Assembly: GCA_963768855.1 (NCBI GenBank)
Contig: CAVYJM010000011.1
Span: 256,001-320,000 of the forward strand
Reading direction: 5' to 3'
DNA: 64,000 nucleotides
Source: an uncultured Thermoplasmata archaeon
GTDB taxonomy: Archaea > Thermoplasmatota > Thermoplasmata > RBG-16-68-12
Made by a program: the position numbers and the translations under genes. Below, in pieces: positions 11,475 through 32,360 of this stretch. Below the pieces are notes generated by a model. That model ran no database searches and had not been told where the DNA came from. It worked only from the letters and a program-made list of their open reading frames with translations. The first letter of the stretch is position 1; each line of letters opens with the position of its first letter.

Positions 11475-11630
11475 TCAGGCTTCCTGGTAGATGCGCAGCA
11501 TCACGCGGGGGAAGAAGCCGAAGCCCCTCGGCGCGACGCACTTCTCGTGCATAAAATACGTGCACGTGTGGCAGCAGTCGCGGAAGCCCGCGGGATCGTG
11601 GTTCGGCGGACAGGTGTACTCGCAGGACAT
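11475..11630 (-). CDS. Small Cys/His-rich protein (51 aa), not in the ORF track
   Basis: MSCEYTCPPNHDPAGFRDCCHTCTYFMHEKCVAPRGFGFFPRVMLRIYQEA*; host-like GC3; fills an otherwise empty gap. Confidence 0.7.
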   Translation of the reverse strand: MSCEYTCPPNHDPAGFRDCCHTCTYFMHEKCVAPRGFGFFPRVMLRIYQEA

Positions 11631-11668
11631 CGCCCTTGAAATGGGGGATGAGCTGGTGTAGATGTTTC

Positions 11669-11677
11669 GTACTTACA
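11669..11677 (+). repeat. Left copy of direct repeat GTACTTACA (probable TSD, element 1)
   Basis: Identical to 13038-13046. In the end register of element 2 it reads (C/G)GTACTTAC at 11668-11676 and 13037-13045. Confidence 0.7.
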
Positions 11678-13036
11678 GTTGAGTGAACACTTGTAGGGGG
11701 GATTACCACTTTCGCTCTACTCCCTTCGCATCATTCAAGGCTTTGAGAGCTCAGAGGACATCTGTGGCCACGAAATGCATGGTCCGTAGCATTTCCTTCC
11801 CGGCCGGGTCGTTGCCGCCATCCCTCCTCCACCTCCTCGCCGAGTTCCGCCTCATCGTCAACAAGTCCATTCGCATCGCGCTGCGCGAGGACATCCGCTC
11901 TCGATTTCGGCTCGCCCGTTCGGCCTATGCGGCTCTGGCCGCCGAGCATGATGTGTACAAGCAGTACATCCCGAGCGCCTTCGGGGTAGCCCTCGGACTC
12001 CTGAAGGCGTACCGGAGGCGGGTGCGGAAAGGCAAGAAGGCGAACGTCCCGTATGTCCGCCGTCTGATGCTTAGTGCCGAGAACCAATCCTATCGGCTCG
12101 ATCGGACAACCGGGAAGCTGCGTATCCCCATCCGTCGTGGAGAACACGTCTACCTAGACTTGCCAGTCTGCGATTGGCATCTCACCTTCCTATCAGATCC
12201 CAGCTGGAGTCTCGGCTCCCTGACGGTCACCCCCGAGCGAATCATCGTGTTCGTCCGAAGGCACCCTCTCAAACCCTACGAGCCAACTTCCGCCCTCGCG
12301 TTCGACACGAACGAGGACTCCCTCGACGGCGTGCTGGTCGCGGGATCTGTAGCTCAACTCGTCAGTCTCCCTTTGGGCGGCGTTCGACAAGTGCAGACGA
12401 CGCACTTCCGTCGACGCCGACGCCTGGCAAAGAAGAAGGCTTGCGATCGACGAGTGAAGCGGCAGTTGCTCGGCCGTGAAGGGAAGCGGGAACGGAACCG
12501 TGTGAAGCAGCGACTCCACCGGATCAGCAAGGTTCTCGTGGCTAGAGCCAAGCAATGCAAAGCCGCCGTTGTCCTTGAGGATCTCACCCTTTCGGGTGCA
12601 CGCGGCCGTTCCCGCCGCATGAACCGCCGCCTGTCGTCCTGGCCCCGCGGCGAACTCCATCGTCAGATCGAGTACAAGGCCGCCCTCGCGGGCGTGCCGA
12701 TCATCAAGGTCAACCCCGCATGGACCAGCAAGACCTGCCCAGTGTGTGGCGCCCGGCGCCGAGATAGGGTGGGCCCGGATTTCGTGTGCGAGATGTGCGA
12801 CTGGGAGATGGACCGGCAGCACAACGCAGGCCTGAACATCCTGAAATCCGCCTTGGCCTCGAACGAGGCCTTGGCACGGGCTGTACGGTTCCAGCCCGGT
12901 GCCCTCCGCGATGATGTGGTGAGTCCCCTCTACGACCTGCCAGCGTTGCTGGCAGGTGCACGGGAGGAGCCGAGCGGAGTGGAGTGCGTTGCAGAGGTGG
13001 GGCCGTGAAGCCATCGTCCTCGCTACTCGCAGAACC
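11677..13036 (+). mobile_element. Non-autonomous TnpB-only element 1 (TIR/TSD type, degenerate left end)
   Basis: Single tnpB gene. Right end ...GCAGAACC matches the element 2 end ...ACAGAACC. Flanked by an 8-9-bp direct repeat; left end AGTTGAGT matches the TIR only partly. Confidence 0.75.
11764..13008 (+). CDS. tnpB: TnpB-family RNA-guided RuvC protein, RuvC-III Asp replaced by Gln
   Basis: RuvC-I AFDTNE, RuvC-II VLEDL, WPRGELHRQIEYKA, Zn ribbon CPVC/CEMC, MDRQHNAGLNI. GTG start chosen by alignment with copy 2. Confidence 0.93.
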   Translation: MATKCMVRSISFPAGSLPPSLLHLLAEFRLIVNKSIRIALREDIRSRFRLARSAYAALAAEHDVYKQYIPSAFGVALGLLKAYRRRVRKGKKANVPYVRRLMLSAENQSYRLDRTTGKLRIPIRRGEHVYLDLPVCDWHLTFLSDPSWSLGSLTVTPERIIVFVRRHPLKPYEPTSALAFDTNEDSLDGVLVAGSVAQLVSLPLGGVRQVQTTHFRRRRRLAKKKACDRRVKRQLLGREGKRERNRVKQRLHRISKVLVARAKQCKAAVVLEDLTLSGARGRSRRMNRRLSSWPRGELHRQIEYKAALAGVPIIKVNPAWTSKTCPVCGARRRDRVGPDFVCEMCDWEMDRQHNAGLNILKSALASNEALARAVRFQPGALRDDVVSPLYDLPALLAGAREEPSGVECVAEVGP

Positions 13037-13037
13037 G

Positions 13038-13046
13038 GTACTTACA
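13038..13046 (+). repeat. Right copy of direct repeat GTACTTACA (probable TSD, element 1)
   Basis: Identical to 11669-11677. Confidence 0.7.
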
Positions 13047-13084
13047 ACCCGCATTGTGGAGTAAGGAGGGAAAGAGGACAAGGG

Positions 13085-29073: not shown

Positions 29074-30639
29074 CTACGCCTCGTACAGGGAGTGGCTTTG
29101 CTCGTGCATGAACTGCGGGAGGTAGAAGTATCCGCCCGCGGCCTTGCCCGAGATCCCGGACATCTTCCAGCCACCGAAGGGCTGGACCCCGACCACTGCG
29201 CCCGTCGTCGATCCGGCGGCGCGGTTCGCGTACATGACGCCGGCCGCGCACTCCCGGAAGAAGCGGTCGACCTCCGCGGGGTTCTTGGAGAAGATCCCTG
29301 CGGTCAGCCCGTAGTCCGTCGAGTTCGCGAGGTCCATCGCATCGTCCAGGCCGCTGACCTCGATGATGGACAGGATCGGGACGAACAGCTCCTCGTTGTT
29401 CACGCGGTGCTTCCTCGGGAGGCCGTCCACGATCGTGGGCTTGACGAAGAGGCCGTCTCCCTTCAGGACCTCGCCGCCGGTCAGGATCTTTCCCCGCCCC
29501 TTCTTCACATCGGCGATCGCCTTCGCGTAGGTCTTCACCGCCGCCTCGTTGATCACGGGACCGAGGTACACGTCCCGCTGGGTGGGGTCTCCCATCTTGA
29601 TCTTCTCCGTCTCCGCGACGAGCTTCTCGACGAAGGCCTTCTTGACGCGCTTGTCGACGAGCACGCGCGAGCAGGCGGAGCACTTCTGTCCGCCGAAGCC
29701 GAACGCGGCGCGCATGGCGCCCAGGGCCGCCTTCTCGAGGTCCGCGTTCTCCGTGACGATCGTCGGGTTCTTCCCGCCCAGCTCCGTGATGATCGGCTTG
29801 GGGAACGTCTCGCTGAACGTGCGGTACGCGCCGAGCCCGACGTCGCGGGATCCCGTGAAGACGAACCCGGCGACATCCGTGTTGTCGACGAGCTCCTGGC
29901 CGACCGTCGACCCGGGGCCCGTGACGTAGTTGAAGACTCCCTTGGGCACGCCGGCCTCGCGGAAGATCAGGCAGAGCTCCCACCCCATGTAGGGCGTGTC
30001 GCTCGCCGGCTTGAACACGGCCGTGTTGCCCGTGATCATCGCGCCCGCGGACATGCCGCCCGCGATCGCGAACGGGAAGTTGAACGGGGCGACGACCGCC
30101 CAGACGCCGTAGGGCTTGAGCAGGTCCCGCGTCTTCTCCCCGGGCACGTACTGCCCCATGGCGAAGTCGTAGCCGTGGTTCCGCTCCATCTCCTCCGCAT
30201 ACCAGCGGATCAGGTCCGCCGTCTCGTCCACGTCGGCCATGGACTCGTAGCGGTTCTTCCCGTTCTCGAAGGACATCAGGGCGGCGTAGTAGAATTTCTT
30301 CGCGCTGACGAGGTCCGCGGCGCGGCGGAAGATCCGGACGCGCTCCTCCCAGCCCGTGGCGGACCATGCGGGGAACGCCTTCTTCGCGGCTTCGACGGCC
30401 CGCTTCGCGTGGGCCTTCGTCCCCTTTTGGAACGTGCCGAGCACGAGCTTGCGGTTTGAGGGCGAGGTGTCCGTGAAGCTCTCCCGAGTCCAGATCTCCT
30501 TGCCGTCGATGAACAGCGGGTGCTTCGCACCCAGGTCCATCCGGACCTGCTCGACCGCGGCCTCGTAGGCCTGATGGAACTCGTCCGTCTTCCCTGCCTC
30601 GACCGCATTCTGCCACGTGCGCTCGTTCTTGAAAACCAT
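29074..30639 (-). CDS. Aldehyde dehydrogenase (delta-1-pyrroline-5-carboxylate dehydrogenase-like)
   Basis: PFNFP, KPAS, FTGS, ELGGKN, GQKCSACSR, EELFVP, QPFGG.K.SG. Confidence 0.92.
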   Translation of the reverse strand: MVFKNERTWQNAVEAGKTDEFHQAYEAAVEQVRMDLGAKHPLFIDGKEIWTRESFTDTSPSNRKLVLGTFQKGTKAHAKRAVEAAKKAFPAWSATGWEERVRIFRRAADLVSAKKFYYAALMSFENGKNRYESMADVDETADLIRWYAEEMERNHGYDFAMGQYVPGEKTRDLLKPYGVWAVVAPFNFPFAIAGGMSAGAMITGNTAVFKPASDTPYMGWELCLIFREAGVPKGVFNYVTGPGSTVGQELVDNTDVAGFVFTGSRDVGLGAYRTFSETFPKPIITELGGKNPTIVTENADLEKAALGAMRAAFGFGGQKCSACSRVLVDKRVKKAFVEKLVAETEKIKMGDPTQRDVYLGPVINEAAVKTYAKAIADVKKGRGKILTGGEVLKGDGLFVKPTIVDGLPRKHRVNNEELFVPILSIIEVSGLDDAMDLANSTDYGLTAGIFSKNPAEVDRFFRECAAGVMYANRAAGSTTGAVVGVQPFGGWKMSGISGKAAGGYFYLPQFMHEQSHSLYEA

Positions 30640-30690
30640 GGATCCTCACCCGCTGGCCGACGGATGTCCCAGCCCGGAAAATAAGGTTTC

Positions 30691-30699
30691 GGAATGTAC
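30691..30699 (+). repeat. Target-site duplication, left copy (GGAATGTAC)
   Basis: Identical to 32073-32081 and abuts the TIR. Confidence 0.9.
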
Positions 30700-30709: not shown

Positions 30710-30812
30710 GAAGTCGGATGACGAACCGCTTCCCGCGCTCAGCTCCAGGGATTTTCACTTTCACCCCACTCCCATGAGAACTTCCAGCCTATGGACGCCA
30801 TTCGAGTTCCCG

Positions 30813-32060
30813 ATGGGCGTCTCACGCGTCGTCCGCAGCCTCTCGTTCACTGTCGACGAGTTGCCCGCACCCCTCCGCTGGCTGCTCAGCGAGTTCCGGC
30901 TCGTCGTCAACAAATCCATCCGCATCGCGCTCCGCGACGATCTTCGCTCCCGCTTCCGGCTGTCGAAGGCGGCGTACGCAGGCTTGTCGGCGGAGCACGA
31001 CTTGTACAAGCAGTACATCTCGAGTGCCTTCGAGGTCGCCCTCGGCGTCCTGAAGAACCACCGGAGACGAATGAGACAGAAGAGGAAATCCAACATACCA
31101 TACCTCCGCCGGCTCTTGCTCAAGGCGGAGAACCAGTCGTACCGGCTCGACCGGACGACGGGAAAACTTCGCATTCCAATCCGGCGCGGTGAGCACGTCG
31201 AGATCGACCTGCCAATCTCCCGCTGGCACCGCTCAATCCTGTCGGACCCCGCCTGGGGCCTCGGCTCGCTCACCGTGATTCCAGGGAAAATCATCGTCGT
31301 CGTTCGGAAACAGGCACCCAAAGCCTACGAGCCGGTCTCTGCCGTCGCTCTTGACACGAATGAGGACTCTCTTGACGGCGTGATGGCCGCGCGTGGCGTC
31401 GCACAGCTGGTCACCATCCCCCTCGGTGGCGTCCGCCAGGTGCAGGCGACCCACTTCCGCCGCCGGAGGTACCTCGCGTCGAAGAAGACCCATGACCGGC
31501 GGGTCGCCCGTCGTCTCCTCGGCCGCGAGGGCCGCAGGGAGCGGAATCGGGTGCGCCAGCGACTCCACCGGGTTTCGAAGACCCTAATCGCCTCGGCGAA
31601 GGGCCAGAAGGCCGCCCTCGTCCTCGAGGACCTCACCCTGCATGGTGCAGGCAGCCGTTCATGTCGAACGAACCGCCGCCTGTCGTCCTGGCCCCGCGGC
31701 GAGCTCCACCGTCAGATCGAGTACAAGGCCGCCCTCGCGGGCGTGCCGATCATCAAGGTCAATCCTGCCTGGACGAGCAAGACCTGCCCAGTGTGTGGCG
31801 CCCGGCGCCGAGATAGGGTGGGCCCGGACTTCGTCTGCGAGATGTGCGACTGGGAAATGGACCGGCAGCACAACGCAGGGCTGAACATCCTGAAATCCGC
31901 CTTGACCTCGAACGAGGCCTTGGCAAGGGCTGTACGGTTCCAGCCCGGTGCCCTCCGCCATGATGTGGTGAGTCCCCTCTGCAATCTGCCAGCGTTGCTG
32001 GCAGGTGCACGGGAGGAGCCGAGCGGAGCCGAGTCCCGATGGGCGGCAATCACCCGATGA
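30813..32060 (+). CDS. tnpB: TnpB-family RNA-guided RuvC protein, RuvC-III Asp replaced by Gln
   Basis: ALDTNE, VLEDL, CPVC/CEMC, MDRQHNAGLNI; clear paralog of 11764..13008. Confidence 0.93.
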   Translation: MGVSRVVRSLSFTVDELPAPLRWLLSEFRLVVNKSIRIALRDDLRSRFRLSKAAYAGLSAEHDLYKQYISSAFEVALGVLKNHRRRMRQKRKSNIPYLRRLLLKAENQSYRLDRTTGKLRIPIRRGEHVEIDLPISRWHRSILSDPAWGLGSLTVIPGKIIVVVRKQAPKAYEPVSAVALDTNEDSLDGVMAARGVAQLVTIPLGGVRQVQATHFRRRRYLASKKTHDRRVARRLLGREGRRERNRVRQRLHRVSKTLIASAKGQKAALVLEDLTLHGAGSRSCRTNRRLSSWPRGELHRQIEYKAALAGVPIIKVNPAWTSKTCPVCGARRRDRVGPDFVCEMCDWEMDRQHNAGLNILKSALTSNEALARAVRFQPGALRHDVVSPLCNLPALLAGAREEPSGAESRWAAITR

Positions 32061-32062
32061 TG

Positions 32063-32072
32063 GGACAGAACC
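32063..32072 (-). repeat. Right terminal inverted repeat GGACAGAACC
   Basis: Exact reverse complement of 30700-30709. Confidence 0.9.
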
Positions 32073-32081
32073 GGAATGTAC
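32073..32081 (+). repeat. Target-site duplication, right copy (GGAATGTAC)
   Basis: Identical to 30691-30699. Confidence 0.9.
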
Positions 32082-32084
32082 CGC

Positions 32085-32360
32085 TCAGGCGATGTAGGAA
32101 TCCGTCGTCCCCTCATAGCTGTCGTACTGGACGAGGACGCCGATGTGGGCCAGGAGCTCGCGGGCCCACTCCCGTGAATACGAGTTCGGAGGCAGGTCGG
32201 ACGTCGTCCCGAGCCACTCGAAGATCTCCTTGAACGCGTCCTTCTGCTCGTCCCGCGTCAGCCTCTCTCCGAGGCCGCCCACGGAGGACTCGATCCGGTT
32301 CATCGCGAGCACGAACTCCTTCACTTGGGCCAAGAACTTGGCCTTCTCCTCGCGTGTCAT
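32085..32360 (-). CDS. Hypothetical helical protein (91 aa)
   Basis: MTREEKAKFLAQVKEF...; host-like codon usage; start moved to ATG 32360. Confidence 0.75.
   Translation of the reverse strand: MTREEKAKFLAQVKEFVLAMNRIESSVGGLGERLTRDEQKDAFKEIFEWLGTTSDLPPNSYSREWARELLAHIGVLVQYDSYEGTTDSYIA

Follow-up and report, generated by a model that had tools for sequence, protein, structure and literature searches.

The DNA analysed here (the ‘window’) is a stretch of 64,000 nt from a Thermoplasmata archaeon, taken from a metagenome-assembled genome of 66% GC that is 93.6% complete with 7.7% contamination. That level of contamination, together with many near-identical contig pairs, indicates that the assembly is a mix of close strains; kilobase-long pairs 88–99% identical (C1/C6 and C20/C24, for example) were seen in this genome (G000). 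Two elements carrying tnpB lie in the window, each bordered on its left by a short direct repeat and, outside that, by GTTTC. The features at the two sites are as follows.

11659–11668, reverse strand: host promoter-like motif (forward strand TAGAT-GTTTC), ~30 nt upstream of a small Cys-rich ORF
11668–11676, unstranded: left duplication copy of element 1, CGTACTTAC (alternative register 11669–11677)
11677–13036, forward strand: element 1 (second member of the family), 1360 bp; left end (LE) degenerate, right end (RE) finishing in GCAGAACC
11683–13008, forward strand: tnpB ORF of element 1 (PF07282)
12787–13036, forward strand: omega-RNA-like region of element 1, from the family alignment
13037–13056, forward strand: right duplication copy (13037–13045) and flank, the predicted guide of element 1, right of the RE
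29074–30639, reverse strand: host aldehyde dehydrogenase gene (PF00171, E 2.8e-136)
30680–30690, reverse strand: host BRE/TATA of the aldehyde dehydrogenase gene, matching the genome-wide promoter form
30691–30699, unstranded: left 9-bp target-site duplication of element 2, GGAATGTAC, single copy in the empty site L063
30700–32072, forward strand: element 2, 1373 bp, boundaries set by the empty site
30774–32060, forward strand: tnpB ORF of element 2 (PF07282), coordinates from the ORF finder
31823–32072, forward strand: omega-RNA-like scaffold of element 2, overlapping the 3′ end of tnpB and stopping at the RE
32073–32092, forward strand: right duplication copy (32073–32081) and flank, at the predicted guide position of element 2

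The flank of element 2 reads AATAAG-GTTTC on the forward strand, with GTTTC at 30686–30690, and GAAAC-CTTATT on the reverse. The LE begins GGTTCTGTCC and the RE terminates in GGACAGAACC; the true tnpB start is probably slightly downstream of the listed 30774. The ATG of the aldehyde dehydrogenase gene, at 30639, is ~43 nt from the BRE/TATA motif, and the promoter of this gene adjoins the element; between the BRE and the stop codon of the upstream gene lie just 12 nt. The predicted guide runs into the 3′ end of a small gene on the minus strand. At element 1, GTTTC (11664–11668) is followed by the repeat GTACTTACA at 11669–11677, with a second copy at 13038–13046; in a 9-bp register the repeat is C/GGTACTTAC, at 11668–11676 and 13037–13045. 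The small Cys-rich minus-strand ORF near this element starts at 11630, and the promoter motif here fits the consensus less well (leave-one-out score 6.7). A preliminary description of the locus had reported GTTTC and the direct repeats at both elements, with a 1-nt ambiguity in the register of element 1; the sequences are as it gave them, and the ambiguity is real.

Uninterrupted versions of both sites exist. An exact-word scan of metagenome contigs recovered the locus orthologous to that of element 2 without the element (L063), which reads ...AATAAGGTTTC-GGAATGTAC-ACGTCAGGCGATG... and contains one GGAATGTAC only, an unchanged BRE/TATA motif, and the T-rich flank followed by a match to the guide of element 2 (3 mismatches in 20). 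For element 1, empty sites with a single GTACATACA were present in five related species (L117–L121), in the form ...TAGAA-NTTY-(C/G)GTACATACA-ACCCGCATTGTGG..., where the TAGAA-NTTY block occupies the place equivalent to the promoter-like motif of element 1 and the guide of that element matches with 2 mismatches in 20. Since all of these empty sites hold one repeat copy, the repeats at both elements are true target-site duplications, as had been supposed. The empty sites also fix the element boundaries as GGTTCTG...AGAACC, and place the T-rich motif in host DNA before insertion; the idea that the motif is part of the element was rejected because the empty sites contain it. The further expectation, that the right flank starts with the duplication so that an empty site consists of T-rich flank plus guide match, was seen directly in L063 and L117–L121.

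The tnpB family has four copies in the source genome, with 71–78% protein identity. Family elements were gathered from related genomes and the RE, LE and duplication placed for each, giving a motif set of 22 insertions (~20 independent events) aligned at the LE tip. In ~10 of the ~38 elements with both ends, the third copy of the source genome included, duplication and motif were both absent. That third copy (L003, genome C21:10139–11377) has a normal RE, but its LE TIR, duplication and promoter motif are unrecognisable and its open frame extends to 714 aa; its left side has probably been rearranged.

GTTTC(G) had been put forward as the target motif of the insertions, and this did not survive comparison across the family: in the logo of the upstream flank most insertions lack it, with GTTTC in 4/22 and GTTTCG in 3/22, and what is conserved is TTT plus TWWAR. 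Counted from the LE tip, T is present at −11 in 21 of the 22 insertions, at −10 in 17 and at −12 in 13, as against 6 with G at −13 and 5 with C at −9. Sixteen of the 22 sites have TTT(N) and 21 have TT, the variants of the T-run being CTTC, ATTG, CTTG and CGT. The TWWAR (‘TATA’) block at −19 to −15 carries 0.8–1.4 bits per position, more than the T-run, and −14 and −13 are free. Duplication positions (−9 to −1) carry zero information, and the TAC to which attention had been drawn, although present in both duplications of the window, is not a family feature. On the RE side, no motif was found beyond the right duplication copy in the 22 insertions. Leave-one-out scores exceeded the 99th percentile of random genomic positions on the LE side in 21/22 cases and on the RE side in 2/22, both of the latter in back-to-back divergent promoter regions. 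Moreover, in an independent set of element tips located by TIR alone, 12/20 lay above the 99% threshold, where ~0.2 would be expected. Scores of this kind put the wider TTT + TATA motif far outside what chance would give.

On the opposite strand TWWAR-NN-TTT becomes AAA-NN-YTWWA, which is the BRE/TATA promoter consensus of this genome; the flagged GTTTC likewise reads as GAAAC. AACCTT, AAGCCTT and CTTAAG are the top enriched words upstream of genes in the source genome, in a count that used the first ATG of long ORFs and whose signal is diluted by wrong start calls. Genome-wide, RAAR-N2-3-TTWWAW has 63 matches, 41 of them with an ORF start 10–80 nt downstream (mostly 20–45 nt). Beside the insertions themselves, 19/22 sites have a divergent ORF (70 aa or longer) whose start lies 11–102 nt past the motif (mostly 33–48 nt); the left duplication copy abuts the BRE of this neighbour on its upstream side, and tnpB is directed away from that gene. 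The motif that adjoins both TnpB insertions in the window is a core promoter (BRE/TATA), that of the host gene next to each, and lies on the opposite strand. Promoter targeting had been mentioned earlier as an alternative, on the strength of the resemblance of CGAAAC to a BRE, and it is this alternative that the evidence favours.

Relatives with other arrangements were also encountered. Several mini-elements (L128 in G033:C30, L140 in G003:C211, L126, L127 and L144) consist of LE, omega-RNA region and RE with most of tnpB gone, and are in effect omega-RNA-only derivatives; L128 and L140 are still at a promoter edge. One subfamily (L008 in G067:C82 and L085 in G031:C141) lies beside a tRNA-like 3′ half with T-arm GGCAGTTCAAATCTGCC, has an 11–12-bp direct repeat and no promoter motif, and occupies an orthologous site in both genomes. 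A distant TnpB group from Methanomassiliicoccaceae assemblies (L041, L045–L048 and L056; 42–51% identity, with DRQxNAG as well) differs in its ends, which form a perfect 16-bp TIR, GCTTTGCACCTAAAGT; an 11-bp repeat bearing one mismatch occurs in L056, and A/T-rich promoter-like sequence lies 10–25 nt outside the LE.

The ends of the family are TIRs of ~22–28 bp (about 24 bp) that co-vary between LE and RE within subfamilies. Read inward, the RE consensus is GGTTCTGTCACAAATCGGGTGATG, in which the GG tips, cTGTt and caaa that are the hallmark of the IS6 family (PMC7986276) are all present. Perfect duplications of 9 bp were found in E2, L007, L021, L025, L095, L133 and L134. IS200/IS605 elements have neither TIRs nor duplications (PMC4810608, PMC13565253), and Y1 TnpA (PF01797) was found neither in the source genome nor in any of the order's 31 genomes with this TnpB. 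As for a partner transposase, PF13610 had no match in the source genome, and no intact cognate transposase with exactly these TIRs was found. IS1 (PF03400) was tried because the ends fit ‘GGnnnTG’ with 8–9-bp duplications, and it had no match in the source genome or in any of 79 genomes; IS1595 and IS256 DDE domains, sought for the same role, were not found either. The single IS4/IS5-like element of the source genome was rejected as partner, its TIRs being unrelated and 50 bp long. This element (genome C6:21005–22578; L109:595–2168) encodes PF01609 in an ORF of ~500 aa, and further, palindromic copies of its repeat are found close by. Neither further copies of the element TIR nor any multi-copy IS was detected in the source genome.

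Scanning the order for this TIR uncovered elements with the same ends and no tnpB: L134 (~0.68 kb, perfect 9-bp duplication GGAGCGTCG), L133 (~2.05 kb, perfect 9-bp duplication TCATCGAGG), L132 (~1.2 kb), and L179 and L159, which are the two ends of a single element with duplication CTCCGCGCG. In L132, L133, L134 and L159 a transposase C-terminus reads through the RE, and tblastn shows its homology to the segment that directly follows PF13610 on the C-terminal side in proteins of the order and class. Pfam gave no match on the ORF fragments of L133, because their DDE core is destroyed. The full-length relatives (~540 aa) match PF13610 at E 1e-18 to 1e-23 and have a SWIM zinc finger in addition; the closest are 63–69% identical to the fragment, with somewhat different tips. 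On the evidence of these shared ends, the tnpB elements appear to be non-autonomous IS6-type derivatives in which a cargo of tnpB and omega RNA replaces the transposase.

The tnpB-less elements, which comprise IS6-type transposase remnants and a miniature derivative, sit at the same kind of place. A BRE/TATA at the same 9-bp offset lies on the LE side of L132 (score 14.6), L134 (12.9) and L172 (11.0), with a weaker LE-side match in L133 and L135, and on the RE side of L179/L159 and of the orthologous L160–L169 set. Because elements without tnpB stand at the same promoter offset, target choice can be explained without TnpB or a TAM; the proposed coupling of target choice to recognition of a TAM by TnpB is not needed. 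Promoter-edge targeting thus seems to track the IS6-type ends and transposase, with TnpB not required, the scope of this statement being elements with these TIRs, since generic TIR and duplication detection is unreliable on the other IS6 subfamilies of the order (L146–L157). The two kinds of element do differ in the side on which the promoter lies, LE in 22/22 tnpB elements and 5 LE : 2 RE in the tnpB-less ones. This contrast is weak and the sample small (Fisher ~0.06 by hand, tnpB LE 20–22 : RE 0 versus 5 : 2), but it may be a sign that tnpB or transcription acts as a further filter on orientation.

Two further observations were made among the relatives. L160–L164 and L169 (in G370, G388, G400, G394, G304 and G173) encode an IS6-type transposase of ~520–570 aa with PF13610 and a SWIM zinc finger, at one conserved, orthologous locus throughout one family of Thermoplasmata genomes, with the RE 9 bp from a BRE/TATA; this transposase may be domesticated. 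In L165 (G160:C5) the RE of one element is followed by exactly 9 nt and then by the LE of another, a tandem arrangement that resembles IS26-type arrays.

Both window ORFs match PF07282 (TNB/Zn-ribbon, Cas12f1-like; E 1.9e-19), and TnpB/Cas12f entries of the PDB were matched down to E 4e-11. RuvC-III is DRQ(H/I)NAG in 20/20 aligned copies (DRQHNAG in element 2): on alignment to the TnpB of PDB 9nzp, Gln replaces the catalytic Asp (window positions 31866–31868 and 12817–12819), as it also does in relatives only 42–51% identical. This substitution makes nuclease-based ‘donor-site protection’ uncertain, although six TnpB branches with altered RuvC-III are considered active (PMC10691335).

The last 250 nt of the element are nearly invariant across 20 copies and contain one hairpin with 5–9 compensatory changes per pair; just past ...AGAACC the sequences diverge completely. 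Rfam has no family that matches this 3′ RNA region. Within the source genome, a 3′ part of ~330–380 nt is ~95–96% identical among three of the four copies and ~89% identical in the fourth (window 31670–32028 versus 12621–12979; genome C6:705908–706289 and C21:10153–10615), while in the 5′ two-thirds of the element synonymous divergence is saturated (dS 1.5–2.2), a contrast indicative of gene conversion or of very strong constraint on the omega RNA at the nucleotide level. The position of the guide follows the established TnpB/omega-RNA architecture. Since the RE adjoins a duplication copy, the predicted guide opens with the duplicated 9 bp, so that an empty site presents the T-rich flank followed by a guide match. 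A search of the source genome for trans targets of the four guides gave only chance-level partial matches, and the sole guide match on the TAM side is the 9-nt duplication beside the BRE. An origin of the repeat in a staggered cut made by TnpB itself was dropped, Cas12-type cuts being TAM-distal.

Among the sampled copies, no pair of elements at different sites was 88–99.9% identical. Two pairs of insertions (E4/L026 and L038/L068) are orthologous between species, with dN/dS of 0.15–0.35 and dS from 0.6 to >1.9, values that place tnpB at fixed orthologous sites under purifying selection. Taken with the lack of a PF13610 match in the source genome, these observations indicate copies that are old and immobile now, yet conserved. 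Such copies would leave room for a possible retention or regulatory role of TnpB.

The explanation we consider probable is that these are non-autonomous IS6-type transposons, mobilised in trans, that insert at the edge of a BRE, the TAM-like geometry being a by-product. An IS6-type (DDE_Tnp_IS240) transposase would make one staggered cut within 0–1 nt of the upstream edge of the host BRE, leaving promoter and gene intact. The flagged GTTTC is this BRE (GAAAC) seen from the opposite strand, and the TATA box follows directly outside it; insertion yields the 9-bp duplication with which the predicted omega-RNA guide begins, so that the empty site reads (TATA)-NN-TTT(N) plus guide match. That tnpB-less relatives with the same ends occupy the same spot makes it most likely that the insertion machinery, not TnpB, picks the site. 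We infer that the transposase, or a complex containing it, recognises the promoter, whether through its sequence or through the bent DNA to which TBP/TFB is bound. Selection after insertion could add to the pattern.

A role for TnpB in the choice of site, or in the fate of insertions once made, seems unlikely to us, although several observations speak in its favour. Here TnpB would recognise a T-rich TAM (~TTTN, the complement of the BRE) and either help to choose the target or act afterwards, cutting or binding empty alleles that present TAM plus guide match so that only those insertions whose T-rich flank lies at the LE are retained or spread, for example across the chromosome copies of a polyploid archaeon. 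The geometry is valid at real empty sites, T-rich 5′ motifs are usual for TnpB and Cas12, the motif is on the LE side in 22/22 tnpB elements (2/22 also RE) and at either end in tnpB-less relatives, and tnpB is under purifying selection despite the absence of a cognate transposase. A T-rich TAM co-adapted to the constant promoter flank is plausible. However, elements lacking tnpB reach the same sites, the TATA block, which lies outside any plausible 4–5-nt TAM, outweighs the T-run in information, and the T-run itself varies. All copies, moreover, have the Asp-to-Gln change in RuvC-III, and copy-in transposition of the IS6 type leaves no excised donor to protect (PMC7986276; argument in PMC13565253).

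A more elaborate proposal, which strikes us as rather improbable, would give this TnpB clade a TAM equal to the BRE complement (~TTTN), so that each insertion creates at once a full guide match in the empty allele and a 9-nt seed with TAM on the BRE; the Gln-bearing TnpB would then be a retention or drive device in polyploid archaea, or a self-installing promoter modulator.

Little credence, in our judgement, attaches to the suggestion that selection alone has produced the pattern, insertion being near-random or AT-rich and survivors being confined to the harmless gap upstream of a promoter in compact, 66% GC genomes. Intergenic gaps are indeed tiny (12 nt at element 2), and the sampled copies are all old, so that only survivors are visible. 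Even so, selection would have to account for a cut within 0–1 nt of the BRE edge in ~20 independent events; none of the observed insertions lies in other harmless AT-rich DNA (oligo-T terminators, for example) or farther from the promoter in the longer divergent intergenic regions, of which the one at element 1 is an example, and the fixed orientation is left unexplained.

Very unlikely, finally, is a domesticated regulator of the TldR type, in which a nuclease-impaired TnpB would tune the promoter through the first 9 nt of its guide, placed on the left duplication over the BRE: the Gln kept at RuvC-III across the clade, same-site orthologues under purifying selection (dS 0.6 to >1.9), the absence of both recent transposition and transposase in the source genome, and the 9–11-nt guides that some TldRs use at promoters (10.1101/2023.11.30.569447) are in keeping with it, but a single change in the DED triad is often compensated and six branches with altered RuvC-III are thought active (PMC10691335), the guides are without trans targets in the source genome, the neighbouring genes are mutually unrelated, and binding through a 9-nt match is hypothetical.

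The guide of a TnpB changes with each jump and its TAM cannot; in IS605 the target site of the transposase is the TAM. What use TnpB could be to DDE transposons, whose insertion creates duplications and whose targets are often loose, is named as an open point in a 2026 review (PMC13565253). A DDE-type (IS6-like) family with one defined insertion place would always set a T-rich flank 5′ of the future guide, and a T-rich TAM co-adapted to that constant flank, if true, would explain TnpB function on a DDE transposon. The pattern also suggests a ‘safe-harbour’ insertion rule for archaeal promoters, and urges caution, in that a TAM-looking motif can be plain host promoter DNA.

Fixed, harmless insertion beside the site of a TBP/TFB-type initiation complex recalls integration tethered to promoters or transcription factors: yeast Ty3 reportedly integrates at TFIIIB-bound Pol III start sites, and Tf1 at Pol II promoters. 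Those, however, are eukaryotic retroelements, and tethering is only a candidate mechanism here. With IS200/IS605 elements of the IS1341 type the family shares the layout of TnpB and omega RNA, a guide drawn from the right flank and a conserved short motif 5′ of the empty-site target; it differs in having TIRs, where IS200/IS605 elements have subterminal hairpins, and a 9-bp duplication, in carrier genomes that lack Y1 TnpA, and in a motif that is host promoter where that of IS200/IS605 is a 4–5-nt cleavage site. As regards TldRs, nuclease-dead TnpB-like repressors that have lost their transposon context and whose guides match promoter targets, one catalytic residue is changed here and the transposon ends are still present.

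The likeness to IS6/IS26 is closer, comprising GG tips, CTGT and CAAA blocks, a short duplication of fixed length, MITE-like derivatives, and relatives sharing these ends whose remnants are homologous to PF13610 (DDE_Tnp_IS240)-type transposases; the IS6 family is, besides, plentiful in archaea, and its transposition is copy-in (PMC7986276). The duplication is nevertheless 9 bp here where 8 bp is typical, the related full-length transposases are ~540 aa with a SWIM zinc finger compared with 213–254 aa in the family (PMC7986276), and the window elements encode tnpB and omega RNA with the transposase missing. Precise insertion at a BRE edge is not described for the IS6 family, for which a 2021 review lists a passenger gene in one member and is silent on TnpB (PMC7986276); in the literature searched, no description of TnpB on IS6-type ends was found.

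There are precedents both for TnpB on DDE transposons whose ends are inverted and for solo TnpBs that are mobilised in trans (PMC10691335), and ISL2, IS630 and IS1031 are DDE families named as carriers in the available text of a second source (PMC13565253). Like those TnpBs, the present ones lie at most 250 bp from a transposon end with inverted terminal repeats and, as solo TnpBs, share their ends with transposase-bearing elements, by which they are presumably mobilised in trans (PMC10691335). As far as the available text of the two sources goes, the DDE families that they name do not include an IS6-type partner (PMC10691335, PMC13565253), nor is a promoter-edge target that supplies a constant 5′ flank to the guide described for the DDE-associated TnpBs. 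DDE-borne TnpB and target preference of insertion sequences are both kinds already known, and IS6-type ends combined with a BRE-edge target are a variant of them.
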